A stretch of 64,000 bases of DNA from Candidatus Aenigmatarchaeota archaeon (lineage in GTDB: Archaea > Aenigmatarchaeota > Aenigmatarchaeia > QMZS01): the NCBI GenBank assembly GCA_030600555.1, contig JAUVLW010000001.1, positions 6,411 through 70,410 on the forward strand, given 5' to 3'. Positions 325 through 56,889 of the stretch are shown one piece after another; position 1 is the first letter of the stretch; each line of letters starts with the position of its first letter. The translations under genes were made by a program, and so were the position numbers. The notes beneath the pieces were generated by a model. It had not been told where the DNA came from and did not search any database. It worked only from the letters and a program-made list of their open reading frames with translations.

Positions 325-386
325 AATTATTAGACAGGTAAATATTATTATTTGGATAATTTATAAATTTAATGATATTCAGTTAT

Positions 387-31151: not shown

Positions 31152-33737
31152 CTATTTTACAATAACCCCTTCCGCAGAACTTAAATTAATTTCTCTGTAG
31201 ATAACAGGTCTCTCAGTTGAACTTAATATTTCACCCCTCCATTTTTCATCTGTTAACCTGTCGTCCATAGGCCATGCGAATTCATAGTAACTAAAAATTG
31301 GACCTACTGCAATTCCAATCCTTCCATCTTTTGCTTTATGCGCAACAACAATCCAGTCAACTTTTCCGGTTCCAACCTCAAGGACTTTCTTTGTATTTGA
31401 TTCTGTGTGAACATCCGCAATCATGCTTGTTTTAAAAGCCTCATCTTTTCCTTCAAGAACTGTTTTTTTAGTGCATTGTTTTCCAACAGGGCATCCTCCT
31501 GATTGTATTTCCAAAGCGGACGCAAGATTTTCAAGTATTGAATCAAATCTTGAATTAATAGATTTTATATAATCATAATCTTCTTCTGTTAAATTTTCCG
31601 CTTTCAGTTCTTTCTCGGAAATTATTCTCAATTTTTCCATCATTTCAGAACTTTGCTCAAGGGAACTTCGGACTTCGTCAGTTATAATCTCTTGTTCACC
31701 TAGTCCTTGTTTAAGGAAATCAATGGCGTATTTTGCTCTTGCAAATAATTCGGGGTTTGGTTCAACATAACCATAATATTTTGCTTCAATTGGATCTGGC
31801 ATTGAAGTGATTCCAAGTGCGGTTGCCCAAGTATAACTTTGCTTTACATACAAAATTGTGTCATGTCTTAATTCAGCCCAGCTTGACAAACTTGTAATTA
31901 AATCCTTTAATTTCCAGGTTTCATTTCTCATCCAGTTTGGATATCCTTCAGGTTTCTCTTTCAGAACCGGTTGTAACATCCAGAGCCAGGTATTATATAA
32001 ATTCTTTGTCCACATTTCTTCGGAGTATGAATCTATAAGGGTTCTTAGTTCATACTGTTTTTTATCATAACCGCAGTATCCATTATTATAATATTCATTT
32101 AGTGTCTGTTCTGCTTTTTTAGAACCCAGAATATTTATAACATCCAATCCTGTTGGCATAAATCTGCACACAGAATATAATTGAGATTCATTTAATCCCC
32201 CGCAAAATCCGGCGGTATGCATTTCCAATGCTTTGCTGCAGACTTCATTCCAGTACTTTGTGCGGTCTTCATCCATATAAGTGCATGTGGTATAGAATCC
32301 TTTTGGTTTTGAAAGTTTTGAATAAGTTGATTCGCAGTCCAGAACTTTTTGGTAATACGGCGATTTTACATTAGGTCCAACATTTTTGTAAACCAAATCC
32401 CCAAGTATTTGAGAATCAATTGCGTATCTTTGCCCGATTAATCTTAAACCCTGCGTCAGTTCTTTTAGGTTTCCTGCAAGGTCGATTTCAAATCCCCCGA
32501 GAATTTTCGGACCTTCTGAGTTATTTAGTTCTTTCTGTATTTTTTTTGCGACATTTACTGTAAGAGTCATTTCTTCATCAAATTCATAACCATAAACTTT
32601 TTTTATAGCTTCGTCATAATCATAAAAAGTAAAGTCATCCGATACTCCGGCAAAGAAACTTGTTATTGAATATATCTTGTTGTAGATTTCTGAAGCCGGA
32701 TAAATTTTTCCTTCAAATTTAACTTCTGCTGATTTTACTGCATCGGTCAATAGAATTGCCTGTTTTGTCCAACCATCCCCTCTTGTTTTAAAAGTAATTC
32801 TTCCAAGCCACATCATTGATTTGAAATATTGTTTTAGTCCTTCTGAACTCGTGTAATGACCTCTTGGAACATATTGCGAATAATCTTCACAGTAACATTC
32901 TCTTGTGCAGATTTCACTGTAAAATTCAACAGAGTCCCATTCTTTTCCCTGATAAAATATTTTTCCGCCTTTTATCTCCTGGCTGCATTTTTCATTTTCC
33001 CATTTAGGAAAAGCGAGCCTTAAGCATTCATCTGGGCAGTCTTTACTCATGATTTCAGATTTGAAAAATCCTTCATGCTTTTCTATTCTATCAAGTTCTT
33101 TGTTCACATCATCTGCGACAAAATAAGTGACTACATAATTAGGGTCGAGCAGTTTCATTGCAACGCTCAGGTAAGCAATATTTCTTTTTGAAAGTTCTTT
33201 TAGTTCTCCATCTTCAAACCCATTGTATTGCCTCATGGATTCTTTTATCAAAGATTTTAAAAATTCTTTTAACATTGGGGATAATTTTTTAATTTCAAGA
33301 TTCTTGAGAATCTCATTAAATTCAAGGTGGAATAAATGCAATATTGAATCTGAGGTTATAAATACAGGTATGTCTTTTTGGTTGAGGTTTAAATAAGCAT
33401 GTTCAAATCGGTCATATTCAGTTCCAGATAAAATTATGGCTCCATTATTTAGTAAAGTCTGTATTTGTTCTTCGCTTAGATTATTTCCAAATCTTTCAAC
33501 TAAATCTCTTTGGTAATTTTCCGGCAATTCTGTTAAAGGCAATTCATATTCGGAATTGTTATAAGTTTCAGGCGTATATTCATAATCTGACAGGAACATT
33601 GAAAGTCTTGGTTGTGGGATTGCGCCTGAGGAATAAACCGATTCTTTTTCACCCAGCACCGTCGGAGGGTTTGTGTAATAAAAAACTGTATAAATCGCCA
33701 CCAGAATAACTAAGGTGATTATAATTAGTTTTTTCAT
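31152..33737 (-). CDS. large secreted/extracytoplasmic protein, Cys-rich, unknown function
   Basis: 861 aa with an N-terminal signal/anchor helix and many Cys. No catalytic motif recognised. Confidence 0.5.
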   Translation of the reverse strand: MKKLIIITLVILVAIYTVFYYTNPPTVLGEKESVYSSGAIPQPRLSMFLSDYEYTPETYNNSEYELPLTELPENYQRDLVERFGNNLSEEQIQTLLNNGAIILSGTEYDRFEHAYLNLNQKDIPVFITSDSILHLFHLEFNEILKNLEIKKLSPMLKEFLKSLIKESMRQYNGFEDGELKELSKRNIAYLSVAMKLLDPNYVVTYFVADDVNKELDRIEKHEGFFKSEIMSKDCPDECLRLAFPKWENEKCSQEIKGGKIFYQGKEWDSVEFYSEICTRECYCEDYSQYVPRGHYTSSEGLKQYFKSMMWLGRITFKTRGDGWTKQAILLTDAVKSAEVKFEGKIYPASEIYNKIYSITSFFAGVSDDFTFYDYDEAIKKVYGYEFDEEMTLTVNVAKKIQKELNNSEGPKILGGFEIDLAGNLKELTQGLRLIGQRYAIDSQILGDLVYKNVGPNVKSPYYQKVLDCESTYSKLSKPKGFYTTCTYMDEDRTKYWNEVCSKALEMHTAGFCGGLNESQLYSVCRFMPTGLDVINILGSKKAEQTLNEYYNNGYCGYDKKQYELRTLIDSYSEEMWTKNLYNTWLWMLQPVLKEKPEGYPNWMRNETWKLKDLITSLSSWAELRHDTILYVKQSYTWATALGITSMPDPIEAKYYGYVEPNPELFARAKYAIDFLKQGLGEQEIITDEVRSSLEQSSEMMEKLRIISEKELKAENLTEEDYDYIKSINSRFDSILENLASALEIQSGGCPVGKQCTKKTVLEGKDEAFKTSMIADVHTESNTKKVLEVGTGKVDWIVVAHKAKDGRIGIAVGPIFSYYEFAWPMDDRLTDEKWRGEILSSTERPVIYREINLSSAEGVIVK

Positions 33738-34869: not shown

Positions 34870-36267
34870 CTAAAAATATGGCTGAAAGAGAATAATTATA
34901 ATAAGTAAGCTAATCAAAATCAGTAAACTGCTTATCCAAACCCATTTTTTTGAATTTTTATGCGCTGCGTAAAATCCAGCCAACAAACTAAGACCTTCAA
35001 TAAATATTAATTGTTTTGGCAGTTGCGTGGATAATATAATGCACCCCAGTAAAGATAGGAATAAAAGTGTATAATAAACATATTTGTTTTTTAGTTTAGT
35101 TAAACCCATTTTGGCAAAATAACCAACAATAAAAGGAAGACCTGCTATTATGAAACATATGCCTGAGAGTAAACTGAGGATTAAGGTAAATTCTAAAACA
35201 GGGAAAACCAAATTCCTAATTTTTTCGTTTAGGGAAATATAATTTGGGTCCAAATCTGAGTTGTATTTCGTTGATGCGAAATAAGAATCTTCTTTTAAGT
35301 CTTTCAAATCACCGTCATATGTTAATTGAGTAATATATTTTTCATTTGTTAAGTTATATTTATCTTTTAAGGAATTGGTTAAAGGGGTCATTTTTGCAGT
35401 AGATAAAACATTTCTTTCATCCTCTACAGGTGTTTCTGAAAAAACATACACTTTTACTTCAGTATCTCCGTCATTGATACTTGAAATTTTCATTGGATAA
35501 AAGGGTTTTTCTGGTTGGAAGGTGAATTTTAATGGTGTGGAAATTCCTTGTTTTAATTCGTAAAGAATTTTTATTGCAGAGCTCGATGCATTTTCACATT
35601 CAGTTTCATATTCTAACCAATATTTTATATATTCTTCCAAGTATTCATCTTCAATAAGATAATCCGGAATGGAAATTGCTTCAGCGCATATTCTATCCAT
35701 ATTTGTAATTTTCAAATTTTCATATTTATTTGTTAGATTAATTTTGTTTGCAATAAAATAAAAATCTCCTCTATCGCAATAATCCTGCAAAATAGGTATT
35801 GCGGTTTCAGGTGTATTGTATCCATTCTCATTCAACCAATCAACAAGAACTGAAGCATCGGTGGCTTTCAGAATTGTAATATCATAAATGTCAACTTTCT
35901 TGGTTTCTATAACCTGGATTCCCTGATTTCGCATTCCACCATCCATAACTCCGAGACCCCAACCTTTAGAAGTATCTATTGGATTAAATAAGTCCGTTAA
36001 TTCATAAAATATCTGTATATCTCCTTCATCAACTTCTGGTTTTACTTTGGAAGGAATTGGCACAACCCAAGCCAGATTAGTTAAGTTATCAACGCTTATT
36101 TTTGTGGATAAAATCATTGTTTCTGTTGTCCCGTCCCAGAAAATTGCCGCCTTTTGCGAGGGGGCATAGACTTCGCTGTAATCCGGAATAAATACGCAGC
36201 CATCAGCAATAGTTAAAGGCAATAAACAAATCGCAATTAATAAAAAGGTAAATAATTTTTCATTCAT
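34870..36267 (-). CDS. hypothetical extracytoplasmic protein with signal peptide and C-terminal TM anchors
   Basis: 465 aa: an N-terminal signal peptide and 2-3 C-terminal TM helices. Confidence 0.45.
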   Translation of the reverse strand: MNEKLFTFLLIAICLLPLTIADGCVFIPDYSEVYAPSQKAAIFWDGTTETMILSTKISVDNLTNLAWVVPIPSKVKPEVDEGDIQIFYELTDLFNPIDTSKGWGLGVMDGGMRNQGIQVIETKKVDIYDITILKATDASVLVDWLNENGYNTPETAIPILQDYCDRGDFYFIANKINLTNKYENLKITNMDRICAEAISIPDYLIEDEYLEEYIKYWLEYETECENASSSAIKILYELKQGISTPLKFTFQPEKPFYPMKISSINDGDTEVKVYVFSETPVEDERNVLSTAKMTPLTNSLKDKYNLTNEKYITQLTYDGDLKDLKEDSYFASTKYNSDLDPNYISLNEKIRNLVFPVLEFTLILSLLSGICFIIAGLPFIVGYFAKMGLTKLKNKYVYYTLLFLSLLGCIILSTQLPKQLIFIEGLSLLAGFYAAHKNSKKWVWISSLLILISLLIIIILFQPYF

Positions 36268-40585: not shown

Positions 40586-42373
40586 ATGAATCTAAAAAAA
40601 TTGCAGGAATTCCTCGGTTCTGGCAAGGATTTGGGTGAATTGCCCGATTATTTTTCAATAATTGTTGATGAGAGAAAATTTGAGTTTAAAAGAACCCCCA
40701 AAAAGCCCCAAAAACTGGTAAAATACCCAAGAGACAAATTAATGGAAGAAATAAAATGGCCTCAGAATGCGGGAACCTATGATATTGGGGATGTTGCAAA
40801 TCCGGTTATGTTAATCTGCCCTTCTCAGGACAGGGAATTGCAGGAACATGCAATTTATGCGGGAGTTTGCGCAACAGGACCTTGTTTAACCCCGAGAGGA
40901 GTTGAACTCCTGATAACAAACACAATCTCAAACCCAAACATAAGGTTTTTAATTCTTGCGGGAAGAGATTCCGGGCATTTAACCGGTGATTTAATTGAAA
41001 ATTTAATACTGAACGGGGTTGATGAAAACAGAAAGGTAATAGGCTCAAAGTGCCCTTCTTTCCCTTATCTCCCAAACCTGAGTCTGGAAGCAATAAATAG
41101 ATTTAGGGAACAGCTGGAAGTTATAGATTTGATTGGGGTTTTTGATTCCACCCTGATAACTTTAATAATTAGGCTTTGTTTGCAGGAACCGATTAATGCT
41201 TATGAATTGACCTATGAAGAAAAACCTTCATCTCTCTTTAAACAAATTGAGGACCCTAAGAAAATCACTCACATCTTATTTGATAAAGGTGCTGTGAGCA
41301 AAGAACCCATGGTCTTATCTTATTCTTTAGTGGATTTGCAGTCCCTTCCTTACGAAGCATTTTCAACAACAGGAACCACGGTTTACGCTTCCACTGTTGA
41401 GGAAGCCCACAAAATACTTGTTGACTTTTTAAAAAGAGCGGGGGTGTGGGTAAAACAGGAGAGCAATAGGATGGGTCTGGATGTAATCGCAACAACAATT
41501 GTTGTGGAAAATCTTGAGCAGGGTCTTTACCCAAAAAATTACAAACCTGTGGAATGGGTTGATTCTGATGAAAAAATGAAACAATATTTGAAAGCTTATG
41601 GTGTGTGGAATTACTTAGTTCCCTGGAGCAATGTTGTGTTTGATGAAAATCTTGAGAAGACAGTTCCTTCAATTCCGGACATGAAATATTTATCTTATTC
41701 TTACGGAACGAGGATTACCGCAAAGGGAATGGATTCCTGCAAAAAAGAAGAGAGGGGAGGAATTATTAAATTGGTGAAATCTTTCCAGGAAAAACATTAT
41801 GAAAAAGTTCCTAATTTTAAATCAATCCTAAATTTTTATCATGATTTGGAAAGTGTTCAAAAACAAAGTTTTAATCAGTTGCTGGCAATTACCAAAGCAT
41901 GTTCGATTATTGTTAAGGATAATATTACCGGGACTTACAGACCTTACCTGCAGTTGCACGTTGCGGATGATTTAAAACCAATTGACCCAAGAAAAATGCA
42001 TAATCCATGTTATTGCATGTTTGTTCCGTTTTTCAGGAAAACTTATTATAGGGAATATAATAAGGATGGAATTACTCGCAGGTTTTTAGTTCCTTCTTTG
42101 AGCGTGGAGAAAGAAACAGATTTGAAATATGATTGGTTGTTTATGCCATCGGCTTATTTGAGAGCCCATGACTGGTTTGCTTTTCCCGCAAATGTCCACG
42201 GGTCTTTAGCTATGGGGAATTTTATATTGCAGAATATTGAACAGGAGACCGGGAAGAAAATTCCCTGGGGTTGTTATTCACATCATGCTTCGTCATTGCA
42301 TCTTGTTGATTATTCTTTTGATAAAAATATGCTTGAAAAACTTAACCGAACTTTACCTTCAGACAAACATTGA
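40586..42373 (+). CDS. large fusion protein with thymidylate-synthase-like C-terminal domain
   Basis: C-terminal HNPCYCMFV (compare ThyA PCH), DWLFMPSAYLRAHDWFAFPANVHGSLAMGNF (compare DVFLGLPFNIASYALL) and CYSHHASSLHLVDY (compare GDTHLY). The N-terminal ~350 aa are of unknown family. Confidence 0.4.
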   Translation: MNLKKLQEFLGSGKDLGELPDYFSIIVDERKFEFKRTPKKPQKLVKYPRDKLMEEIKWPQNAGTYDIGDVANPVMLICPSQDRELQEHAIYAGVCATGPCLTPRGVELLITNTISNPNIRFLILAGRDSGHLTGDLIENLILNGVDENRKVIGSKCPSFPYLPNLSLEAINRFREQLEVIDLIGVFDSTLITLIIRLCLQEPINAYELTYEEKPSSLFKQIEDPKKITHILFDKGAVSKEPMVLSYSLVDLQSLPYEAFSTTGTTVYASTVEEAHKILVDFLKRAGVWVKQESNRMGLDVIATTIVVENLEQGLYPKNYKPVEWVDSDEKMKQYLKAYGVWNYLVPWSNVVFDENLEKTVPSIPDMKYLSYSYGTRITAKGMDSCKKEERGGIIKLVKSFQEKHYEKVPNFKSILNFYHDLESVQKQSFNQLLAITKACSIIVKDNITGTYRPYLQLHVADDLKPIDPRKMHNPCYCMFVPFFRKTYYREYNKDGITRRFLVPSLSVEKETDLKYDWLFMPSAYLRAHDWFAFPANVHGSLAMGNFILQNIEQETGKKIPWGCYSHHASSLHLVDYSFDKNMLEKLNRTLPSDKH

Positions 42374-42640
42374 GAAAAATAAGAAGAATATGAATAGCGT
42401 GAGCAGGGCAATTAATGCAATTCTTGCGCTTCCAACCGCAAACTTGCTGAGAAAATATACTAAAGGGGTTAATACAAGGAATGCAAGGATAACCCCGGAT
42501 GGACCTCCAACAGTAATTCCATAAATAAGGGAGTTGATGAGTTGTATGAATAATGAGAATACTGAGACAATTGTTGAGACTGTGTTTGATAAGATTACAT
42601 AAAAAATCTGGAATAAAATCGACAATGGCGAATCTACCAT
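42359..42640 (-). CDS. hypothetical small membrane protein
   Basis: 93 aa with 3 TM helices. Convergent with the upstream gene. Confidence 0.3.
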   Translation of the reverse strand: MVDSPLSILFQIFYVILSNTVSTIVSVFSLFIQLINSLIYGITVGGPSGVILAFLVLTPLVYFLSKFAVGSARIALIALLTLFIFFLFFSMFV

Positions 42641-43686: not shown

Positions 43687-44202
43687 TTATAATTTCCCTA
43701 ATTTTTCAAGAATTTTGACACCTCTTTCAATATAAGCAGGTGTTTCACGCCTTTCCAGATCTTGTTTTATTATATCATCAATATTTCTTGGTTGGTAAGA
43801 ATAATAGCGTGTATTTCCTGAATCATCATTTGTTTTTTCTGTGCCCAATTCATAATCTTTTCTTCTCAAATTATTTGCAGAGATAAATGGATTTTCTTCA
43901 CTTATTTTTGTTGGGTTTTTGGAGGTCAATATTTCAGTAAAATAAGGGTCTCCAAGATATTGTAGGTGTTCTGTAAAATCTTTATAAGGTGCGGAATTTT
44001 CTGTATGGACCTGATGAAGAGCTACAGTAAAATCATCTTCTGTAACACCGTTTGTTTTATGGTAAAGTTCATACGCTTCAAGTATTTCTTCAGGTACTCC
44101 AAAACCCCTGTTTTGAAAATTGGAATAAATCTGTTCTGGTGATTTTCCTAGGTCAAACAAGCTACCAGCTAAATGTAATTCTTCCATAAAATTAAAACCC
44201 AT
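43687..44202 (-). CDS. hypothetical protein (paralog of 44244..44711)
   Basis: Shares NPF(I/M) and a C-terminal RG(V/I)(K/E)IL(E/T)(K/E)L motif with its neighbour. Confidence 0.4.
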   Translation of the reverse strand: MGFNFMEELHLAGSLFDLGKSPEQIYSNFQNRGFGVPEEILEAYELYHKTNGVTEDDFTVALHQVHTENSAPYKDFTEHLQYLGDPYFTEILTSKNPTKISEENPFISANNLRRKDYELGTEKTNDDSGNTRYYSYQPRNIDDIIKQDLERRETPAYIERGVKILEKLGKL

Positions 44203-44243: not shown

Positions 44244-44711
44244 TTATATTCTTTCTAATTCTGTAAGAATTTCAATACCTCTTCGTACGTATTCATTATC
44301 TTCTGGTCCATCTATCAAATCTCCAAAGGCATATATATCCATAAAAGGATTATTGTCATTTATTTTGTTTGAATGATAAATAATTCTAAAATTATCATCT
44401 CCTGTGTAGAGTTCATATTCTTCAATATCTCTGAATACATTTGAATGTTTCTCAAAATCCTCCTGCATTTCAGCAGGTTCTTTATATCTTTTACTATTCT
44501 TATCAAACTCAGATTTACTTATAAATCTTCTTTTTATTTCAAGATGCTCGAGATAGGCGCCATAACTTGGAAATCCCCCATTATAAGCTCTGTGATAAGC
44601 TCTAATAGTATTTAGTGAACAGGATATATTTTTCTCTAAAAGTCTGTTATAAATTTCTCTGGGAATTAACCCTTCTGTGCAATATTCTTTCACTAATTTT
44701 TCTATACCCAT
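44244..44711 (-). CDS. hypothetical protein (paralog of 43687..44202)
   Basis: 155 aa. See the neighbouring paralog. Confidence 0.4.
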   Translation of the reverse strand: MGIEKLVKEYCTEGLIPREIYNRLLEKNISCSLNTIRAYHRAYNGGFPSYGAYLEHLEIKRRFISKSEFDKNSKRYKEPAEMQEDFEKHSNVFRDIEEYELYTGDDNFRIIYHSNKINDNNPFMDIYAFGDLIDGPEDNEYVRRGIEILTELERI

Positions 44712-44726
44712 AAAGTAATAAAATAA

Positions 44727-45419
44727 TCATTTATTAAGGTAATATTTTCTCTTAGTTTCATCAAATTTTTCAATTGAATACCGCAACATTGTCCTTGGCA
44801 TGGTTTTATGGTATTTTTCAAGGAAAGTTTCCTCTGTTTTTTGGTCTCTTTTTCCGATTTCTCTCAGCATCCACCCAACCGCTTTGTGGATTAAATCGTG
44901 GTTGTCGTTTAGGAGAATTTCTGATATTTTTAGGGTATCTTCAAATTCGTTGTTTTTTATGAATGTATGTGTTGAGATTATTGAAATTCTTTTTTCCCAC
45001 AGGTTTTTTGAGTTGGCGAGTTTGTATAGAATTTTTCTGTCTTTGTTTAGGAGGTAGTTTCCAATAATATGGGGGGCTGAGATATCAACCAAATCCCAGT
45101 TATTGATATTGGTTGTGTTCTTCAGGTAAAAGTCAAATATTTTTTTCTTTTCGGTTTCATCTGATTTCCTGTATTTGTCAATGAGTATAAATAAGGAACA
45201 TGCCCTGTATTCGTGGATGTTTGTTGATAATAATTCCTGCAATTCTTCAAGGGATAAGTTGATATATTTCTTTGCAATCTTTCTTTGCTCGGGAACAATG
45301 ATTCCAAGAAAAGTATCTCCTTCTCCATACTCGCCTTTTCCAGTTTTAAAAAATCTTAGATAAACTTTTGCTTTCTCCGGGTTTTTTAGGGATTGGAGTT
45401 CTTGTTTTAGTGTTGGCAT
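44727..45419 (-). CDS. DNA alkylation repair enzyme (AlkD/AlkC HEAT-like repeat family)
   Basis: ..NNWDLVDISAPHIIG...LWEKRISIIST...HDLIHKAVGWMLREIGK.. is the AlkD-family pattern. Confidence 0.75.
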   Translation of the reverse strand: MPTLKQELQSLKNPEKAKVYLRFFKTGKGEYGEGDTFLGIIVPEQRKIAKKYINLSLEELQELLSTNIHEYRACSLFILIDKYRKSDETEKKKIFDFYLKNTTNINNWDLVDISAPHIIGNYLLNKDRKILYKLANSKNLWEKRISIISTHTFIKNNEFEDTLKISEILLNDNHDLIHKAVGWMLREIGKRDQKTEETFLEKYHKTMPRTMLRYSIEKFDETKRKYYLNK

Positions 45420-45509: not shown

Positions 45510-46463
45510 TTATGCGCGGGAAGATGGTTTAAGCAGTTGTTTGTAAAAGGATATGTTGATTGTTTCCCCCTCAATATCTTCAATATATCTTGTTATGTCA
45601 TCCAGATAATTTTGGATGGTTTTATTATTAATCTGCGAGATAAGATTATTTATTTTTTTGAAGTCACTATCTTTTGTCTTTTCAAAAATTTTAGATGTTT
45701 TATGGATGAGATGACTTATAGTTCCGTTAAGTTTATATTTAATAAATGTTAAAATTTCTTTTTTGTTTTCAAAACAGGTTTCATGTTTATTTAAATATTC
45801 TCCGAGTCTGTAAAGATCATCTCCAATATTCTCTAATTTCTTGCTTATCAAAAAATATGAAGGAATCAACGATGTATTTTTTATTTTTGATGAATGCAGA
45901 ATCTTTGAATCTGTAAGCGATAATGAAATAAGTTTTGTCCCCAGATGATATAATCTGTCAATTTCATTTTCATTTATTCTTATTTCTTCAATATCTATTT
46001 CATTTAAAATGTTTGAAAGAGATAATTCAAGTATGGTATTTATCCGGTAAAATATTTGGTAAATGGTGACTTTTGATTCGTCCAGCAGTATTTTTAGGGT
46101 AATCTTTTTATTGTCTTCATAGGTTATTTCAGTCCCGCTCATATGCGCCAGAGTTTTTCTGATTTTTGTTTTGACTTCTTTTGTCAACTCTTTTTTGGAA
46201 TATAGATTGATATTTTCAATTCCAAGGTAATATAATACAAATACAATCTGGTCGATATTATTGAGGTATTCATCAATATTCAGGGAAATCTCATCCATTT
46301 TTTTTCTTTTGATTAAATGAGAAGACAAGAGCAATGTTTGGTTATCTTTTTCATAAATCAATAGTTCATCTTTTTCTTTTAATTTATTCTTTTTAACCCA
46401 TTCCTTTGGCAATGAAATGGAATAAGTGCTGCCCGCAATCAATTGTATTTTTCTCCTGTGCAT
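45510..46463 (-). CDS. phoU: phosphate uptake regulator, AbrB/SpoVT N-terminal domain fused to PhoU-like domain
   Basis: The N-terminal RKIQLIAGSTYSISLPKEWVKKNKLKEKDEL is a swapped-hairpin AbrB/MazE-like domain. The rest is a helical PhoU-like repeat region. Divergent from pstS. Confidence 0.6.
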   Translation of the reverse strand: MHRRKIQLIAGSTYSISLPKEWVKKNKLKEKDELLIYEKDNQTLLLSSHLIKRKKMDEISLNIDEYLNNIDQIVFVLYYLGIENINLYSKKELTKEVKTKIRKTLAHMSGTEITYEDNKKITLKILLDESKVTIYQIFYRINTILELSLSNILNEIDIEEIRINENEIDRLYHLGTKLISLSLTDSKILHSSKIKNTSLIPSYFLISKKLENIGDDLYRLGEYLNKHETCFENKKEILTFIKYKLNGTISHLIHKTSKIFEKTKDSDFKKINNLISQINNKTIQNYLDDITRYIEDIEGETINISFYKQLLKPSSRA

Positions 46464-46478
46464 AATTGTAAAAGAAAA

Positions 46479-46531
46479 GTAACTATATAAATATTTATGT
46501 AACTATATAGTTTATATAGGATAACTATATA
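46479..46531. promoter_or_regulatory. three direct repeats (G)TAACTATATA spaced 20-22 bp in phoU/pstS divergent promoter region
   Basis: Copies at 46479-46489, 46499-46509 and 46522-46531. Confidence 0.5.
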
Positions 46532-46593
46532 TATTATCCTACCATATGAGTATATGGAAATTAAAGTTGCAGAAGCAATAGATTGGGTGAATT

Positions 46594-47535
46594 ATGGGAG
46601 ATAATAAAAAATTGAACGGTGTTTATTTAGCGGGCGCATTATTATTGATTATTTTAGTGTCCGGGTGCACCACTGAAAATAAGATTACGGGAGATCATGT
46701 AAAAATTGTTGAGAACATTGAGATAAAAGGTTCGGATACTTTATTGCAGTTGGTTTCAAATATGGCTGAAGCTTATATTGAAAATAAACCTGATGCAAAA
46801 ATATCTGTAACAGGCGGAGGTTCTGGAACAGGCATTGCCGCGTTGATTAATGGCGAAATTGATATTGCGGATGCTTCCAGAAAAATTAAAGAAGAAGAAT
46901 TGGAACAGGCAAAGGGAAGAGGAATAAATCCATGGGAGTTTATAATTGCAAGAGATATGTTGTCAGTAATTGTAAGCAAGAACAATCCTGTGTCGGAGTT
47001 GACTCTAGGACAGATAAGCAAAATTTACAAAGGAGAGATTACTAATTGGAATGAAGTTGGGGGAAATAATCAGAAAATTACTCTCTACGGAAGGCAGAGC
47101 ACTTCAGGAACATATTCATATTTTATGAAAAAAGTTGTGGAAGGAGATTATTCTCCTCATATGATGAATCTGGAAGGAAATCAGGCAATTGTGGATGCGG
47201 TTAAACAGGATAAAGAAGGGATAGGATATGTTGGGCTTGGTTATATTGCGGACGAGAATGGCAATCCTGTTGGAGGCATAAAAATAGTGGAAATAGCAAA
47301 GGATAAAAATTCCCAGTATGTTTCTCCTTTGGATGAATCAAAGCATTCCTTATATCCGATTTCCAGACCATTGCTTCAGTATCTGGCAGAAAAACCAATT
47401 AAAAATTCCGGGGTTTACAACTTTTTAAAATTTGAGTTGAATGCTGAAGGGCAGGAGATTGTAAAAAAAGCGGGATTTGTTCCAATAACTTCAGAAGACA
47501 GGAACCACAATAAAGAGTTGTGGAATAAGATTTAG
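46594..47535 (+). CDS. pstS: phosphate ABC transporter substrate-binding protein PstS
   Basis: Signal peptide plus Cys (LVSGC), then ..SVTGGGSGTGIAALINGEIDIADASR...TSGTYSYF.. PstS motifs. Confidence 0.85.
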   Translation: MGDNKKLNGVYLAGALLLIILVSGCTTENKITGDHVKIVENIEIKGSDTLLQLVSNMAEAYIENKPDAKISVTGGGSGTGIAALINGEIDIADASRKIKEEELEQAKGRGINPWEFIIARDMLSVIVSKNNPVSELTLGQISKIYKGEITNWNEVGGNNQKITLYGRQSTSGTYSYFMKKVVEGDYSPHMMNLEGNQAIVDAVKQDKEGIGYVGLGYIADENGNPVGGIKIVEIAKDKNSQYVSPLDESKHSLYPISRPLLQYLAEKPIKNSGVYNFLKFELNAEGQEIVKKAGFVPITSEDRNHNKELWNKI

Positions 47536-47547
47536 GTTGCAAATAAT

Positions 47548-48438
47548 ATGTTCAATTACAAGAATACAAAAGAAAAATTAATTGAACTGTTTTTTTCAAC
47601 AACGGGAATCCTGACCTTATTGATATTGATTGGAATCTTTGTTTTTCTTTTTGTTACGGGAATACATACTTTTGCAAAGATAACTCCAACAGACTTTTTT
47701 TTGGGTGAGCAATGGAACCCGGATGCATATGGAACACCAAAATGGGGCATTTTGAGTTTGATAATCGGAACTTTAATGATAGCGTTTGGCTCTTTGGTTA
47801 TGTCAATACCCTTGGGACTGGCGGGCGCTGTTTATTTATCTGAAATTGCGGGCTCAAGAACAAGAGAATTGTTAAAGCCGGCCATAGAAATGATTGCGGG
47901 CATCCCGTCGGTTGTGCTGGGTTTAATTGGCATATTATTTCTTTCGCCGTTGATTGCCAATGTTTTTGGGTTGAGCCATGGACTTAATGCGTTTACTTCT
48001 TCAGTTATAGTCGGGGTGATGGTGTTGCCCACAATAATCAGCATCTCAGAAGATGTTTTGACTTCACTGCCAAATGAATTTAGGGAAGCCAGTCTCGCAT
48101 TGGGGGCGACAAAATGGCAAATGATAAGGATGACTTTGCTCCCGGCTGCTTTGTCCGGAATTGTGGCAGCTGTAATGCTTGGGTTGGGAAGGGCGATTGG
48201 AGAAACAATGGTGGTCCTGATGGTGGCGGGCAATTCAATAGCAATGCCCACCTCATTTTTTAGTCCAGTAAGACCAATGACCGCCAATATTGCAATAGAA
48301 ATAAAAGAGGTTGTGACCGGAAGCCTTCATTATGATGCTCTTTTCGCTATCGGGCTTGTGTTATTTGTCATGACTTTTATTGTAAATTTCATTTCGGACA
48401 TTATTGTAGAAAAACATGTGAGGAAATACAGATGGTAA
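47548..48438 (+). CDS. pstC: phosphate ABC transporter permease PstC
   Basis: 6 TM helices and an EAA-like loop ..EASLALGATKWQMI.. Confidence 0.85.
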   Translation: MFNYKNTKEKLIELFFSTTGILTLLILIGIFVFLFVTGIHTFAKITPTDFFLGEQWNPDAYGTPKWGILSLIIGTLMIAFGSLVMSIPLGLAGAVYLSEIAGSRTRELLKPAIEMIAGIPSVVLGLIGILFLSPLIANVFGLSHGLNAFTSSVIVGVMVLPTIISISEDVLTSLPNEFREASLALGATKWQMIRMTLLPAALSGIVAAVMLGLGRAIGETMVVLMVAGNSIAMPTSFFSPVRPMTANIAIEIKEVVTGSLHYDALFAIGLVLFVMTFIVNFISDIIVEKHVRKYRW

Positions 48439-49286
48439 GTGAACAATCAAAACAGGCAATATATTTTACGCTTTTCAAGTCAGCCACAGTTTTATCAGTC
48501 GCAATTTTATTATTTGTGCTGCTGTTTATTTTTTGTGAGGGAGCGGGAGTTGTGGATATTAAATTTCTTACAAGTATGTGGTCTCACCGGGAGATTACTC
48601 AGGGAGGAATTCTCCCCGCAATTATGGGAACCTTTTTTCTGGCAATCGGAGTTTCTGTTGTATCAATACCCCTCGGTATTTGCACCGCTATTTATTTGAA
48701 TGAGTATGCGAAAGAAAATCTTCTTACGCGGACAATTAAACTCGCAATAAGAAATCTTGCGGGCGTGCCGTCAATAGTTTATGGAATTTTTGGTCTGGCT
48801 TTTTTTGCCCTGTTCCTGAAGCTCGGTGGCTCATTGATTGCCGCATCATTGACCCTCGGATGCATGACCCTGCCGTGGATAATAACCGCAAGCGAAGAGT
48901 CTCTTAAAGCAGTTCCTAATTCATTCAGAGAAGGAAGCTATGCATTGGGAGCCACAAAATGGCAGACTATAAAAACCAATGTTCTGCCCCATTCTTTTAG
49001 CGGAATAATGACCGGAGCAATACTGGGTTTATCCAGAGCTATGGGAGAAACCGCTCCAATTATCATGGTCGGAGCCACATTTTTCATAGCTCATTTGCCA
49101 AATTCTCCTTTTGATAAATTTATGGCAATGCCTTATCATTTATATATTCTGGCAACCCAGCATTCCAGTCCTTATGCGAGAGAATATGCTATGGGAACTG
49201 CTCTGGTATTGGTTGCTTTAATATTTATGCTGAACTTGGGGGTATTTGCATTAAGATATAATTTGAGGAAGAAAAAGGCGTGGTAA
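48432..49286 (+). CDS. pstA: phosphate ABC transporter permease PstA
   Basis: ..EGSYALGATKWQTI.. EAA loop. Overlaps the pstC stop. Confidence 0.85.
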   Translation: MVSEQSKQAIYFTLFKSATVLSVAILLFVLLFIFCEGAGVVDIKFLTSMWSHREITQGGILPAIMGTFFLAIGVSVVSIPLGICTAIYLNEYAKENLLTRTIKLAIRNLAGVPSIVYGIFGLAFFALFLKLGGSLIAASLTLGCMTLPWIITASEESLKAVPNSFREGSYALGATKWQTIKTNVLPHSFSGIMTGAILGLSRAMGETAPIIMVGATFFIAHLPNSPFDKFMAMPYHLYILATQHSSPYAREYAMGTALVLVALIFMLNLGVFALRYNLRKKKAW

Positions 49287-49287
49287 T

Positions 49288-50049
49288 ATGAAAGAGAAAG
49301 TAAAGATAGGGTTTAAAGATATGGGTTTTTGGTATGGCAGTAAACAGATTTTGTCTGAGGTTAATCTAAAGTTTTATTCAAAAAAGATTACCGCGTTGAT
49401 TGGTCCTTCGGGATGCGGAAAATCCACATTGATTCGGTGCATCAACAGGATGAATGATTTAGTTCCAACTGCGAAAATTGACGGCAGGATAATCTACAAT
49501 AATGAAGATATTTACGGAAAAAATGCGGATGTTATTGAACTAAGGAAAAAAATCGGGATGGTGTTTCAAAAGCCAAATCCTTTTCCCATGTCTATATTTG
49601 AGAATGTTGCGTATGGTTTGAGAATACAAAATATGAAGGATAAAAATGAGATTGCCCGGATTGTTAAAAAAAGTTTGGAGAAAGCGGATTTGTGGAATGA
49701 AGTCAAAGACTGTTTAAGTCGTTCAGCTTTTGGACTTTCCGGGGGTCAGCAACAAAGATTGTGCATTGCAAGGACTTTGGCAAATGACCCCGAGGTTGTT
49801 TTGCTTGATGAACCCTGCTCATCTTTGGATCCAATTGCCACAGCAAAAATAGAAGTTTTATTAAAAAAAATAAAACGCGAAAAAACCATTATTATTGTTA
49901 CGCACAATATGCAGCAGGCAAAAAGAATCTCGGATTATTCCTGCTATTTGCTGAATGGAAAAATTATTGAATATTCAAAAACAGAAAATATGTTTACTCA
50001 CCCGAAAAACAAATTAACAAAAGATTATCTTGATGGGCGGTTTGGTTGA
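49288..50049 (+). CDS. pstB: phosphate ABC transporter ATP-binding protein PstB
   Basis: Walker A GPSGCGKST, ABC signature LSGGQQQRL, and Walker B LLDEP. Confidence 0.9.
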   Translation: MKEKVKIGFKDMGFWYGSKQILSEVNLKFYSKKITALIGPSGCGKSTLIRCINRMNDLVPTAKIDGRIIYNNEDIYGKNADVIELRKKIGMVFQKPNPFPMSIFENVAYGLRIQNMKDKNEIARIVKKSLEKADLWNEVKDCLSRSAFGLSGGQQQRLCIARTLANDPEVVLLDEPCSSLDPIATAKIEVLLKKIKREKTIIIVTHNMQQAKRISDYSCYLLNGKIIEYSKTENMFTHPKNKLTKDYLDGRFG

Positions 50050-50672
50050 GTTTATTTTCTAAATATTCTGAGGCTCTGCTTCAATCGGGTATTATAAATT
50101 TATTTTTAGTGGTAAAGATTATGTCTGAATTAATTGTATTTTGCAATCCCCGGCAGGTTTATGCGGGGAAATTAGAACTGGATATTGCCAGAGAGTACAC
50201 TAAAATGGCTATTGATGACTATGATAAACTAATCTCTTTTGATGAAAAATACCTGCCTTTTGTTGAAACTCCTGATTATGAATTTTGCATTGGGAAAAAA
50301 GGCAGTAGAAATTTATTATTAAATTTGTTTGCGCAACAACCAATGACAAGGGTTGGGGATGTTTATGAGAATTTTAAATCATCAAGTTATCTTTTCAATC
50401 CGGAATCAAAAGAAGAATTGTGTTTGCCTGATTTGGATGTTGTTCAAATAGAAGGAGATTATCAGGTTCGGGATGCCGCAAAAACCATTAAACAATTTTA
50501 TGAAAGTTTTGGGTGGGAGGCTTACATTTTTGATGGTCAAATTGAGGAGAGGATTGTGGTAAATCCAATTTCTGATAGATATGATGGGCCTATTGAAATA
50601 ATACCCCCGGGAATTCTTCGAGAGATTGCGGAAGAAACTGTTGGATATGATGTTGAGGGGTTGTGTTTTTAA
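50046..50672 (+). CDS. hypothetical protein translationally coupled to pstB (not PhoU-like)
   Basis: ATGA overlap with the pstB stop. 208 aa with no recognisable family. Confidence 0.4.
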   Translation: MSLFSKYSEALLQSGIINLFLVVKIMSELIVFCNPRQVYAGKLELDIAREYTKMAIDDYDKLISFDEKYLPFVETPDYEFCIGKKGSRNLLLNLFAQQPMTRVGDVYENFKSSSYLFNPESKEELCLPDLDVVQIEGDYQVRDAAKTIKQFYESFGWEAYIFDGQIEERIVVNPISDRYDGPIEIIPPGILREIAEETVGYDVEGLCF

Positions 50673-56556: not shown

Positions 56557-56889
56557 ATGGAAATTCATCAGGCTCAACAGAAGATTAAGGAATTGCTCGG
56601 AGAAATAGAACACCCGAGACTGGCTTCATTTGTTGCTTTAACAGAAGAAGTTGGGGAAGTTGCAAATGAAGTTATGAAAAAAGAAATCTACGAGGAAACC
56701 GATGATATAAAAGAGTTGAAGGCAGAAATTGCGGATGTATTAATCTGCGTCTTAGAGCTTGCAAATGTGTATAATTTCGACCTGGATTCTGAATTTGAGA
56801 AGAAACTGGAGCACATTAAACCCAGAACAAAAAAATGGAAAGTAGATTTAAAAGACCTGCTGGAGAAGAAGAGAAATAAATTGAATTAA
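56557..56889 (+). CDS. MazG-like nucleotide pyrophosphohydrolase
   Basis: ..LTEEVGEVANEV...EIADVLICVLELA.. is the all-alpha NTP-PPase EExxE/D motif pattern. 110 aa. Confidence 0.65.
   Translation: MEIHQAQQKIKELLGEIEHPRLASFVALTEEVGEVANEVMKKEIYEETDDIKELKAEIADVLICVLELANVYNFDLDSEFEKKLEHIKPRTKKWKVDLKDLLEKKRNKLN

Follow-up and report, generated by a model that had tools for sequence, protein, structure and literature searches.

Thymidylate synthesis is essential for DNA and, to our knowledge, only two classes of thymidylate synthase are known, namely ThyA, for which folate is both the one-carbon donor and the reductant, and ThyX, which relies on a flavin. The making of dTMP in archaea with modified pterins is poorly characterized, and few experiments have addressed archaeal thymidylate synthases (PMC9931769). 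The locus analyzed here, situated in a 64,000-nucleotide stretch of DNA (hereafter, the window) from an Aenigmatarchaeota archaeon, raises the question of whether a 595-aa protein with a thymidylate-synthase-like C-terminal part makes dTMP and, if so, from which one-carbon carrier. The original prediction envisaged an enzyme of a novel kind that transfers C1 units or modifies nucleotides and draws on an alternative C1 carrier, an idea that remains plausible and can now be sharpened because the domain fused to the ThyA-like module is of a type known to carry methyl groups.

The ORF itself was called correctly, running from ATG to stop codon at its exact coordinates on the plus strand (Table 1). 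It is not a chance reading frame, because public data hold 24 full-length homologues sharing 35-92% identity with the protein, the alignment with these homologues contains many invariant columns and the AF2 model is confident (mean pLDDT 82.3), the geometry of one domain relative to the other being uncertain (pTM 0.55). That an MtrA-type domain is fused to a ThyA-like domain can be stated with near certainty. The sequence motifs noticed originally are all present (GVCATGPC at residues 93-100, LILAGRDSGHLTGD at 122-135, HNPCYC at 472-477, AFPANVHG at 532-539 and SHHASSLHL at 565-573). The N-terminal region, formerly ascribed to an unknown family and put at ~350 aa, amounts to ~260 aa, given that the ThyA-like domain spans residues ~263-595, and its residues 57-207 form an MtrA-type corrinoid-binding domain. 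The ThyA-like part does lie at the C-terminus, as anticipated, but instead of ~200 aa it covers ~330 aa and includes two insertions. A Pfam search gave no family match for the N-terminal extension (residues 1-56), and no DUF4346 similarity was found for the interdomain segment (residues 208-262). Conservation is expressed below as counts over the 25 sequences of this family, termed the long form.

Table 1. Features of the fusion gene, in window coordinates.
Feature	Residues	Position	Strand	Basis
Complete ORF, MtrA-like + ThyA-like domain fusion	1-595	40586..42373	+	ORF list, homologues, AF2 model
N-terminal extension, helix + beta-hairpin	1-56	40586..40753	+	DSSP of model
MtrA-type Rossmann-like domain, predicted corrinoid-binding	57-207	40754..41206	+	Pfam, PDB sequence search, Foldseek
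GVCATGPC, MtrA beta2-alpha2 loop (GAAIAGPC)	93-100	40862..40885	+	Pairwise alignment to 5laa
His131 codon, equivalent to MtrA His84	131	40976..40978	+	Alignment to 5laa
PSFPYLPN, MtrA 'meander'	157-164	41054..41077	+	Alignment to 5laa
Interdomain segment, two strands, low-confidence linker 249-262	208-262	41207..41371	+	pLDDT profile, DSSP
Diverged thymidylate-synthase (ThyA)-fold domain	263-595	41372..42370	+	Foldseek, hhalign, ThyA HMM
Y338...W341.Y343..P346 aromatic motif, family-specific		41591..41623	+	hhalign mapping
YSYGTR, Y373-G374 equivalent to ThyA Y94-G95	371-376	41696..41713	+	hhalign mapping
Insertion 1 (~70 aa), three-helix insert relative to ThyA	~380-450	41723..41935	+	hhalign gap, model
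TYRPY, R452 equivalent to ThyA R127	450-454	41933..41947	+	hhalign
Cys475 codon in HNPCYC, equivalent to ThyA Cys146, catalytic nucleophile	475	42008..42010	+	hhalign
Insertion 2 (~32 aa), beta-hairpin	~485-516	42038..42133	+	Alignment, hhalign gap, model
YLRAHDWFAFPANVHG	524-539	42155..42202	+	hhalign
YSHHASSLHLVDY	564-576	42275..42313	+	hhalign

Residues 57-207 are matched by PF04208, the sole Pfam match of the protein, with E 7.3e-35 and 120.6 bits versus a cut-off of 25; an HMMER search of PDB sequences retrieves 5laa, 8q3v and 5l8x (E 1e-30 to 1e-24; 5LAA, E 6e-30), and Foldseek matches the domain to 5l8x and 5laa with E 1e-12 and a TM(target) of 0.86-0.90, its alignments to 5LAA showing 38-39% identity across ~160 columns. 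The Cys/Gly-rich stretches that had seemed unassignable turn out to be MtrA loops: in the alignment to 5laa, GVCATGPC corresponds to the cobalamin nucleotide-tail loop, leading into T102 and G105, the equivalents of two nucleotide-tail contacts of MtrA, and LILAGRDSGHLTGD corresponds to the loop bearing the cobalt-ligand His. In MtrA the lower axial cobalt ligand is His84, the residues in contact with the nucleotide tail include Tyr18, Thr53, Gly57, Val61 and Asn64, and the 'meander' has the consensus GAIP(F/Y)xEN (PMC4915002). The equivalent of His84, which sits within an invariant D128-S129-G-H131 motif, is His in 25/25 sequences; the contact residues have their counterparts in Y65 (Y/F in 25/25), T102 (24/25), G105 (25/25), position 109 (L/V in 24/25) and N112 (24/25), and in the meander P157, P160 and N164 are invariant and Y161 occurs in 24/25, with flanks altered relative to MtrA. 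Taken together, conservation at the equivalents of His84, Tyr18, Thr53, Gly57 and Asn64 and in the meander ranges from 22 to 25 of 25 sequences.

The query thus resembles MtrA and its cytoplasmic homologues in methanogens (PF04208; 5LAA, 5L8X, 8Q3V) in its fold, in the His84 ligand, in the residues of the nucleotide-tail pocket and in having a meander-like motif. It departs from MtrA at the position of Glu54, which is Pro103 in 25/25 sequences, and the His84-Glu54-Ile111 hydrogen-bond relay of MtrA is not preserved, a role in which the invariant D128 and S129 beside His131 might substitute. From this pattern of conservation we infer that a B12-type cofactor (a corrinoid) is most likely bound here in the base-off/His-on state, His131 coordinating the cobalt from below. 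Whereas MtrA serves MtrH and MtrE, the MtrA domain of the query shares its polypeptide with a nucleotide-activating domain. Nanohaloarchaea, which belong to the DPANN, carry PduO salvage, which implies that DPANN archaea can handle cobalamin (PMC10266531).

As for the C-terminal domain, its original assignment to the ThyA/dCMP-hydroxymethylase fold is confirmed by Foldseek matches to the ThyA structures 2g86, 5j7w and 3kjs (E 5e-7 to 1e-5, prob 1.0) and by an hhalign comparison with E. coli ThyA and 56 stand-alone ThyA sequences (99.5%, E 3.6e-23), with an alignment that extends over residues 2-221 of the E. coli enzyme. A custom ThyA HMM run over the 64-kb window has this ORF as its sole match (E 1.2e-14), and no canonical thyA or thyX was found elsewhere in the window. 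Unlike ThyA (PF00303; E. coli ThyA, PDB 1AOB), the query has no PF00303 match even at E <= 1, reaches 15 bits (E 0.013) against TIGR03283 over residues 524-579 only (cut-off 174.55), contains two insertions and is fused to a corrinoid-binding domain. Insertion 1, located between the equivalents of Y94 and R127, is modeled as helices 387-403, 411-424 and 431-444; insertion 2, present in archaeal long forms and missing in CPR forms, is modeled as strands 483-493 and 496-501.

Judged by the alignment, the residues with which ThyA binds dUMP and activates C5 are largely kept, and those that handle methylenetetrahydrofolate are lost together with the C-terminal tail. The E. coli ThyA counterparts of the three hallmark motifs of the original prediction are P145-C146-H147, L174-P175-F176-N177 and G204-D205-T206-H207. 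Four arginines bind the dUMP phosphate in ThyA (R21, R166, R126' and R127'). Among the expected active-site residues, the nucleophile Cys475 (24/25; Pro474, which precedes it, 25/25, the pair aligning to P145-C146), R452 (25/25), whose equivalent R127 is a phosphate-binding Arg contributed by the partner subunit, and R526 (R166; 25/25) are in place, but the position of R126 is Tyr in the query and Y/N/R in 17/7/1 sequences (position 451). The equivalent of Y94, the general base for C5-H abstraction, is found along with G374 and R376 in 25/25 sequences; so are D529 (D169) and P534 (P175) within YLRAHDWFAFPANVHG, where N536, the equivalent of the uracil-specifying N177, occurs in 23/25 with Asp in 1/25, and H572 (H207) within YSHHASSLHLVDY is His in 21/25. 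The R21 column is Glu in the family, with an Arg three residues on (R295) in 21/25.

The folate-stacking F176 is replaced by A535 (Ala or Ser across the family), the position of D205 by Ser in the query and that of Y209 by Val (Val or Cys across the family); S, G, E, D and Q all occur at the E58 position, W80 has no aligned counterpart because of a gap, and the W83 position holds a family-specific invariant Tyr. In place of the folate-contacting W80/W83 segment there is an aromatic motif whose residues Y338, W341, Y343 and P346 each occur in 25/25 sequences; D575 (25/25) and Y576 (24/25) are likewise specific to the family. The C-terminal ~40 residues of ThyA are missing from the family, and with them the folate-closing tail, since the protein stops ~20 residues past the H207 equivalent.

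The best reading of this architecture, to which we give a probability of roughly 0.45, is a thymidylate synthase whose C1 chemistry proceeds via the bound corrinoid. A role as a dUMP C5 one-carbon transferase or thymidylate synthase is fairly probable, and the corrinoid as direct methyl donor is a rather doubtful proposal. The protein would then be the thymidylate synthase, or one of several, of an Aenigmarchaeota (DPANN) archaeon, converting dUMP to dTMP with two catalytic modules on one polypeptide (residues 57-207 and 263-595). In its dUMP site, Cys475 would serve as the nucleophile, the phosphate would be held by Arg452 and Arg526 and the uracil by Asp529 and Asn536, and Tyr373 would act as the base. 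Cys475 would add to C6 of dUMP, and the C5 enolate would attack the methyl group of the methyl-Co(III) corrinoid on the fused domain with release of Co(I); Tyr373 would take the C5 proton, beta-elimination would free dTMP, and Co(I) would be re-methylated by a further donor. A point against this scheme is that neither the flanks of the gene at the loci examined nor the 64-kb window yielded a methyl-loading partner (MtrH, MeTr, MtaB-like, activase).

The putative methyl transfer may be likened to the chemistry of SAM-dependent m5U/m5C methyltransferases or to the second half-reaction of MetH and MtrA. Methylcobalamin donates its methyl to carbon or thiolate nucleophiles in the second half-reactions of MetH and MtrA-MtrE and in TsrM, and the SAM enzymes TrmA and DNMT carry out Cys-dependent C5 methylation of pyrimidines; the likeness is one of mechanistic analogy only, in that a Cys-generated nucleophile attacks an activated methyl, and the catalytic domains of the enzymes named are not homologous to the query. 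We know of no enzyme that joins a ThyA-type dUMP site to a methyl-corrinoid donor, and our literature search found no report of an MtrA-ThyA fusion with corrinoid-linked dTMP synthesis. That the family adds to ThyA and ThyX a third class of thymidylate synthase with a mechanism of its own, i.e. cobalamin-dependent, operating at the methyl level and employing neither folate hydride nor flavin, is a doubtful step further.

The family has two sets of relatives that bear on these proposals. Short-form MtrA-ThyA fusions of ~425-495 aa, such as P0050, P0027 (annotated as thymidylate synthase [DPANN group archaeon]) and a 445-aa protein from Methanoperedens (locus L020), have the same domain order and in most cases the His ligand; they are homologous to the query family over both domains, the ThyA parts along their whole length (hhalign 99.6%), and match PDB ThyA chains at E 3e-7, thereby bridging the query family to ThyA. 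Unlike the long form, with its two insertions, altered motifs and lack of a Pfam ThyA match, they retain a near-canonical ThyA core with SRR, PC(F/H), RSxD and GSAH(V/I)(Y/T) motifs and are recognized by PF00303, some of them by TIGR03283. An extension ahead of the MtrA domain is also carried by the short forms. No experimental characterization of them was found in the searched literature. His-containing short forms in contigs of MAGs assigned to Methanoperedens and Archaeoglobaceae hint that corrinoid-linked dTMP synthesis, if it occurs, may extend more widely among folate-poor archaea.

The second set is a larger sister class of ~460-540 aa proteins, e.g. P0146 and P0156 (both from Aenigmatarchaeota) and P0106 (KSB1), in which an N-terminal MtrA-fold domain precedes a ThyA domain, as in the query, the latter being of the methanogen type (TIGR03283) and followed by a C-terminal PterinBD-DUF4346. 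Its members carry the annotation thymidylate synthase, and the thymidylate kinase fused to some of them (P0156 reads MtrA-ThyA-DUF4346-Tmk) ties the class to dTMP metabolism. In contrast to the query, their ThyA domains pass the curated TIGR03283 threshold of 174.55 bits, P0146, P0106 and the short-form P0050 scoring 190-210; conversely, the sister class lacks the cobalt-ligand His that is universal in the query family, and its MtrA-like domain probably carries no His-on corrinoid.

These comparisons lend substance to a more conservative, though rather doubtful, explanation, whereby the protein is a conventional methylene-pterin (folate or H4MPT-type) thymidylate synthase and the MtrA-like domain, inherited from an archaeal MtrA-ThyA(-DUF4346) architecture, is an accessory with a structural, oligomerization, regulatory or pterin-handling role and no part in a methyl relay. 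Since the sister class passes TIGR03283 without the His ligand, the role of the MtrA-like domain in the whole superfamily might indeed be structural or pterin-related. D529 is invariant, moreover, and its ThyA equivalent D169 contacts the pterin. The gene for SHMT in one CPR cluster (L003) points the same way, although the adjoining ThyX already accounts for it. Extracts of Methanosarcina and Sulfolobus make dTMP from formaldehyde and modified folates, which denotes a methylene-level, not a methyl-level, donor and counts against the methyl-corrinoid reading (PMC9931769). Such an explanation has difficulty, however, in accounting for a (near-)invariant His ligand and a nucleotide-tail pocket in a domain with no cofactor, and conservation does not extend to F176, W80/W83, E58 or the C-terminal tail. 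The query family also lacks the 'PterinBD' DUF4346 (no Pfam match to PF14251; probability 0.5% in an hhalign comparison with the DUF4346 alignment).

A corrinoid could also be retained for another purpose, namely as a redox partner that supplies two electrons to reduce the exocyclic methylene intermediate formed from a methylene-level donor. The pterin would not be oxidized and therefore no dihydrofolate reductase would be needed, by the same logic as for the flavin in ThyX; DPANN and CPR organisms commonly lack that enzyme. The loss of hydride-transfer-related ThyA residues alongside the retention of dUMP-activating ones fits such a mechanism, and the fold matches include AfhB (9iqu/9iqc), a flavin-dependent phage dCMP hydroxylase that combines a ThyA fold with a non-folate redox cofactor. 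We nonetheless regard it as improbable: we are aware of no case in which cob(I)alamin in an MtrA-type domain simply passes two electrons to a carbon electrophile, an external low-potential reductant would be required at each turnover, and the pterin-binding elements are degraded too.

About equally improbable is that the protein modifies C5 of a pyrimidine nucleotide in another way, for instance as a dUMP or dCMP hydroxymethylase for DNA hypermodification, instead of making dTMP. The CMP hydroxymethylase MilA, like AfhB, is among the fold matches (its sequence match is weak, E 0.75), and the extreme divergence from ThyA, to the point of escaping PF00303, would suit a changed activity. The base-specifying residue, on the other hand, is Asn in dUMP-specific ThyA and Asp in cytosine-specific enzymes such as the dCMP and CMP hydroxymethylases (T4 gp42, MilA), and the query family has Asn in 23/25 sequences. 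Hypermodification enzymes are usually common among viruses, and no viral relatives of the family were found in IMG/VR.

Gene order supports a role in making dTMP and argues against a C5-modifying activity of that kind as well, for CPR operons place the fusion gene downstream of dC deaminases and directly upstream of thymidylate kinase. A dC-nucleotide deaminase lies upstream in 4/4 CPR loci, in the orders dCMP deaminase > fusion > Tmk > ThyX > SHMT (L003), dCMP deaminase > kinase > fusion > Tmk (L015), dCTP deaminase > fusion > Tmk > DCD/dUTPase-like (L014) and dCTP deaminase > fusion (L013). In the L003 genome the fusion is not the sole possible source of dTMP, since ThyX and SHMT adjoin it, and a second, different activity for the fusion would be conceivable there. 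Under the favored corrinoid-linked reading, the fusion and ThyX would instead fit as paired isozymes, one needing B12 and the other not, by analogy with MetH/MetE and NrdJ/NrdAB.

Lastly, the automatic annotation of P0004 and P0014 as tetrahydromethanopterin S-methyltransferase subunit A, that is, a component of an Mtr-like energy-conserving methyltransferase, is extremely improbable despite PF04208 being the sole Pfam match, and we reject it on sequence grounds: the TIGR01111 equivalog score is 112.8 bits versus a cut-off of 249.15, a 330-aa ThyA domain stands where MtrA has its C-terminal membrane anchor, no mtrB-H genes occur near the fusion gene in any locus examined, and the hosts are non-methanogenic DPANN and CPR organisms.

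The fusion of a methyl-carrier corrinoid domain to a ThyA site that retains its dUMP chemistry and has shed its folate features makes B12-dependent dTMP synthesis a concrete hypothesis that can be tested. If true, it would provide such a route for genome-reduced DPANN archaea and CPR bacteria, add a vitamin dependency linking these ultra-small symbionts to their hosts, and assign a function outside methanogenesis to part of the pool of cytoplasmic 'MtrA homologues'. Ancestral-state studies count the latter as remnants of methanogenesis, and MtrA-ThyA fusions counted as MtrA may inflate ancestral Mtr inferences. Even if the corrinoid domain were vestigial, the family would still be a very divergent thymidylate synthase overlooked by standard annotation, which labels it 'hypothetical protein' or 'MtrA'; this matters when metabolism is reconstructed from DPANN and CPR genomes, to which dTMP synthesis would otherwise be denied. 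With 14-19 clusters among 1.84 billion representatives, the long form is rare; its hosts are Aenigmarchaeota, Nanoarchaeota and CPR bacteria. Further links to uracil and dT metabolism are a NUDIX hydrolase gene immediately downstream of the fusion gene in Nanoarchaeota and one further protein, P0019, which is a UDG-MtrA-ThyA-like fusion.

The open reading frame that encodes the 595-residue fusion protein is a real gene, as its relatives, its invariant positions and a confident AlphaFold2 model together establish. Among 5.8 billion protein clusters, 24 full-length relatives with 35-92% identity and four shorter ones were found; the alignment of the 25 family sequences has 57 invariant columns distributed along its entire length, and the model predicted from it reaches a mean pLDDT of 82.3, 239 of its residues scoring at least 90. 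The source of the window is an archaeon of the DPANN lineage Aenigmarchaeota; three Aenigmatarchaeota MAG contigs (L006, L007 and L010) share synteny with it at 85-87% nucleotide identity, and its housekeeping genes are typically archaeal (ribosomal proteins S19, L22 and S4e, Nre, FttA/aCPSF1, aIF2-gamma and Dph2). All the motifs quoted in the original prediction were located in the protein and its observation is confirmed as a whole; of its interpretation, the thymidylate-synthase-like reading of the C-terminal half has stood, whereas the reading of the N-terminal region as an unknown domain has not.

The N-terminal domain matches Pfam PF04208 (MtrA; E 7.3e-35, 120.6 bits versus a cut-off of 25) and the solved MtrA structures 5LAA, 8Q3V and 5L8X (E 6e-30 to 5e-24 among PDB sequences), and the model superposes on 5L8X/5LAA with target-normalised TM-scores of 0.86-0.90. 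In the methyl-H4MPT:coenzyme M methyltransferase of methanogens, MtrA is the subunit that carries cobalamin, and residue mapping by pairwise alignment identifies the Cys/Gly-rich stretches, formerly assigned to no family, as its two cobalamin-binding loops. In the MtrA crystal structure the lower axial cobalt ligand is His84, which belongs to a hydrogen-bond relay His84-Glu54-Ile111; the nucleotide tail is contacted by Asp17-N, Lys52-N, Thr53, Gly57-O and Asn64, its base is sandwiched by Tyr18 and Val61, and a conserved 'meander' reads GAIP(F/Y)xEN (PMC4915002). When these sites were mapped and their conservation was counted over the 25 family members, the sole clear departure was Glu54, which is not conserved and gives way to an invariant Pro; judging from position, the invariant Asp128-Ser129 beside His131 could replace its role. 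The database label 'MtrA', which would make the protein an Mtr subunit, was rejected: its equivalog score is 112.8 bits versus a cut-off of 249.15, it lacks the membrane anchor of MtrA, and there is no mtr operon, mtr genes being absent near the fusion gene at every locus examined.

The C-terminal half is a strongly diverged thymidylate-synthase fold, as four independent lines agree. Direct family searches nearly failed, so that the kinship with ThyA required a fold search and a bridged profile-profile alignment: the query has no PF00303 match in Pfam, it scores 15 bits against the NCBIfam methanogen-type thymidylate-synthase model, the family profile finds MilA alone among PDB sequences (E 0.75), and a global hhalign run against the single E. 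coli ThyA sequence gave no meaningful alignment. Foldseek, run with the model against the PDB, returned hundreds of ThyA chains (E 5e-7 to 1e-5, probability 1.0), along with the CMP hydroxymethylase MilA and the flavin-dependent phage dCMP hydroxylase AfhB. The four shorter relatives (P0025-28, 474-475 aa) contain both PF04208 and PF00303; their C-terminal domain matches PDB ThyA chains at E 3e-7, with the SRR, PC, RSxD...N and G(S/D)AHVY motifs aligned, and matches that of the query family with an hhalign probability of 99.6% (E 2e-22). Comparison of the query family with E. coli ThyA (a sequence identical to PDB 1AOB) plus 56 stand-alone ThyA proteins gave an hhalign probability of 99.5% (E 3.6e-23) over E. 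coli residues 2-221, and an HMM derived from these ThyA sequences matched, across all six reading frames of the window, the fusion gene alone (E 1.2e-14). Compared with ThyA and MtrA, the closest characterised families, the query shows the fold and the key residues of both, and it scores below the curated cut-offs for the ThyA models, for the MtrA equivalog and for the methanogen-type thymidylate-synthase equivalog.

Judged from the alignment, the half of the active site that binds and activates dUMP appears strongly conserved, while the methylene-tetrahydrofolate half appears rebuilt with other, invariant residues, as would be expected if the nucleotide chemistry had been kept and the co-substrate changed. 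The catalytic Cys475 and the dUMP-binding Arg526 and Arg452 are retained, and two further Arg positions of ThyA are changed, R126 being replaced by Tyr or Asn and the R21 column by Glu, which is followed three residues later by a mostly conserved Arg. Among the remaining ThyA positions, E58 lies in a variable column, W80 is opposite a gap, W83 is replaced by a family-specific invariant Tyr that is part of an aromatic motif (Y338, W341, Y343), F176 by Ala or Ser and Y209 by Val or Cys; the family also lacks the last ~40 residues, the segment that in ThyA closes over folate.

Coordinates of the fusion protein's domains, motifs and mapped residues, of genes in the window, and of homologue loci (genes in the order listed; conservation counted over 25 family members)
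Feature	Position	Strand	Counterpart or content	Conservation or remark
Fusion gene	40586..42373	+	595 aa	ATG start; ORF list of window
MtrA-type domain	residues 57-207
Motif GVCATGPC	93-100
Motif LILAGRDSGHLTGD	122-135
ThyA-like domain	about 263-595
Motif HNPCYC	472-477
Motif AFPANVHG	532-539
Motif SHHASSLHL	565-573
Cobalt ligand	H131		MtrA His84	25/25
Base sandwich	Y65		MtrA Tyr18	Y or F, 25/25
Tail contact	T102		MtrA Thr53	24/25
Relay position	P103		MtrA Glu54	Pro 25/25
Tail contact	G105		MtrA Gly57	25/25
Base sandwich	L/V109		MtrA Val61	24/25
Tail contact	N112		MtrA Asn64	24/25
Meander	P157..P160-Y161..N164		MtrA meander	invariant or almost
Base	Y373-G374		ThyA Y94-G95	25/25
Phosphate binding	R452		ThyA R127	25/25
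Nucleophile	P474-C475		E. coli ThyA P145-C146	Cys 24/25
Phosphate binding	R526		ThyA R166	25/25
Uracil/pterin contact	D529		ThyA D169	25/25
ThyA-type Pro	P534		ThyA P175	25/25
Uracil- rather than cytosine-specifying	N536		ThyA N177	23/25
ThyA-type His	H572		ThyA H207	21/25
Insertion 1 versus ThyA	about 380-450		three helices
Insertion 2 versus ThyA	about 485-516		hairpin	missing in CPR members
dUTPase (PF00692)	1554-2012	-
TP_methylase gene	2361-3083	-
DUF3160 protein	31152-33737	-	861 aa	E 2e-172
DUF2330 protein	34870-36267	-	465 aa
Ribosomal protein L22	39387-40130	-	247 aa
Hydrophobic membrane ORF	42359-42640	-	93 aa	convergent; overlaps fusion 3' end by 15 nt
Paralogue-like ORF	43687-44202	-	171 aa
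Paralogue-like ORF	44244-44711	-	155 aa
AlkD-type DNA alkylation repair gene	44727-45419
Solute-binding protein region	45510-50672
AbrB/MazE-PhoU fusion regulator	45510-46463
Three ORFs	47548-50049
MazG-like pyrophosphohydrolase, small	56557-56889	+
Dph2 gene	56890-57759	-
CPR locus	L003:9399-14300 (GCA_004196315.1, SDBT01000009.1)		dCMP deaminase, fusion, thymidylate kinase, ThyX, SHMT
CPR locus	L015:8800-12316		dCMP deaminase, P-loop kinase, fusion, thymidylate kinase
CPR locus	L014:4529-9046		dCTP deaminase, fusion, thymidylate kinase, second DCD/dUTPase-like gene
CPR locus	L013		dCTP deaminase, fusion
NUDIX hydrolase gene, Nanoarchaeota	L086:9785-10225; L087:9785-10225; L004:12112-12552		146 aa	directly 3' of fusion
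ORF after homologue P0005	L090:1819-2100		93 aa
Group A fusion	L020:3884-5221		445 aa	Ca. Methanoperedens sp. (ANME-2d)-assigned contig JAPMTR010000065.1
Group A fusion, truncated	L018:6621-7379			contig assigned to Archaeoglobaceae MAG

Gene context was read from the homologue loci and from the window itself. At all four bacterial (CPR) loci the fusion gene lies within a deoxypyrimidine cluster, in the very place where a thymidylate synthase would stand, after the makers of dU-nucleotides and before dTMP kinase, and the compact operons of L003, L014 and L015 look like complete dC-to-dT salvage modules. The archaeal neighbourhoods hold no conserved functional partner, barring a NUDIX hydrolase gene in Nanoarchaeota, whose start overlaps the fusion stop codon in two of the three contigs and whose product may be a dUTP/dCTP pyrophosphatase supplying dUMP, and a small membrane ORF in Aenigmarchaeota; the latter, which has no Pfam match, agrees in place, orientation and length with an ORF following a 55%-identical homologue (P0005). 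The window also encodes a dUTPase and a MazG-type enzyme, neither adjacent to the fusion gene, which could replenish the dUMP/dUTP pool or keep it clean. No further thymidylate-related gene was found in the 64-kb window by tblastn with the ThyX, SHMT, Tmk and dCMP deaminase of bacterial locus L003 or by the ThyA HMM, a weak negative. In about 65 methanogen loci no ThyA gene lies beside mtrA or an mtrA homologue, and adjacency thus lends no support to stand-alone MtrA homologues partnering ThyA.

When 1.84 billion representatives clustered at 50% identity were searched exhaustively by hmmsearch with the C-terminal profile, only 116 proteins came out at E <= 1e-3, 19 of them at E <= 1e-10 and 14 at <= 1e-30, so that the long form, to which the query family belongs, is rare. 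Among GTDB species genomes it occurs in Aenigmarchaeota, in other DPANN archaea (Nanoarchaeota, as named in source records) and in CPR bacteria (two Saccharibacteria and one Patescibacteria), and the bacterial genome of L003 supplies an additional member (P0018), a distribution suggestive of exchange between the archaeal and the bacterial ultra-small symbionts. A word-indexed search with the same profile added a few short-form fusions, no new types of relative and no stand-alone ThyA. The wider MtrA-ThyA architecture among the weaker profile matches is unremarked. Its short forms, in which ThyA is near-canonical, are the closest uncharacterised relatives and are called 'thymidylate synthase' by automatic pipelines; one occurs in Nanohaloarchaea (L017). 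Those that keep the His ligand (group A, e.g. P0027, P0043, P0050, P0070 and P0120) include fusions on ANME-2d- and Archaeoglobaceae-assigned contigs, so that corrinoid-domain-linked ThyA would not be restricted to DPANN and CPR. Group B, a sizeable and apparently undescribed architecture of about 460-540 aa (P0146, P0156, P0106, P0123, P0141 and P0143), joins a His-less MtrA-like domain to a methanogen-type ThyA, which passes TIGR03283, and to PterinBD-DUF4346; one member, P0156 (660 aa, Aenigmatarchaeota), has a C-terminal thymidylate kinase in addition. The query family sides with group A in retaining the His and is without DUF4346, which was sought in its interdomain segment and not found. 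In P0019 (735 aa; alignment columns 1-200) a uracil-DNA glycosylase domain (PF03167) precedes the MtrA-like and ThyA-like parts, a fusion that ties the family to uracil handling; together with the group B kinase fusion it points the same way as the thymidylate-synthase context.

From sequence and context we infer that the fusion protein is most likely a thymidylate synthase whose fused corrinoid participates in C1 delivery. At the methyl level, a reading to which we give a probability of roughly 0.3, Cys475 would attach to C6 of dUMP, the C5 enolate would attack methyl-Co(III) on the MtrA-type domain with release of Co(I), and Tyr373 would take the C5 proton, elimination then freeing dTMP. Such a route, the simplest chemistry, would involve no hydride transfer, and this would account for ThyA's folate and hydride-transfer elements being dispensable. 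It resembles the way in which Cys-dependent enzymes methylate pyrimidine C5 with SAM, and that in which MetH and MtrA pass on the methyl group of methylcobalamin. The scheme is weakest at the re-methylation of Co(I); no methyl-loader gene was found beside the fusion gene at any locus. Cobalamin salvage genes are known in DPANN archaea (PMC10266531). The co-occurrence with ThyX in one CPR genome means that dTMP may have other sources besides the fusion, and the L003 pair can be read, by analogy with MetH/MetE, as B12-dependent and B12-independent isozymes.

Tentatively, the protein might instead be a conventional methylene-pterin-dependent thymidylate synthase with an accessory MtrA-like domain, as the His-less group B and old extract work in which dTMP was formed from formaldehyde and modified folates (PMC9931769) would favour, although the query family has lost the folate contacts and keeps the His and the tail-pocket residues invariant. 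It is improbable that the corrinoid serves as a reductant, following a ThyX-like logic, and equally so that the enzyme is a hydroxymethylase or other C5 modifier, against which stand the Asn at the base-specifying position, the adjacency to Tmk and the absence of relatives from the viral contigs scanned. Should the corrinoid be the methyl donor of a cobalamin-dependent thymidylate synthase, the fusion would represent a new mechanistic class of an essential enzyme. In 8 million full texts we found no description of an MtrA-ThyA fusion or of a cobalamin-dependent thymidylate synthase, and nothing relevant on DUF4346; a B12-carrier domain joined to ThyA would surprise the specialist, and the hypothesis is directly testable.

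Other genes in the window deserve brief mention. The TP_methylase gene (tetrapyrrole methylase superfamily) was rejected as a corrin biosynthesis enzyme, and hence as evidence of B12 synthesis, on account of the Dph2 gene; given the latter, we take it to be most likely diphthine synthase (Dph5). Ribosomal protein L22 carries an extremely Lys/Glu-rich C-terminal tail of ~130 aa, its Pfam match being restricted to residues 13-106. Side by side next to the AlkD-type gene lie ORFs of 171 and 155 aa without a Pfam match; they resemble paralogues, with similar helix-turn-helix-like N-terminal starts and similar C-terminal '...RG(I/V)(E/K)IL..L...' ends. An unusual AbrB/MazE-PhoU fusion regulator precedes a PBP-type periplasmic solute-binding protein gene (Pfam PBP_like_2) and three ORFs whose sequence and position suggest the remainder of a PstSCAB-type phosphate transporter operon, after which comes a 183-aa ORF with no Pfam match. 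The DUF3160 and DUF2330 proteins are apparently secreted or membrane-bound, families of this type being typical of the cell-surface proteins of ultra-small archaea.
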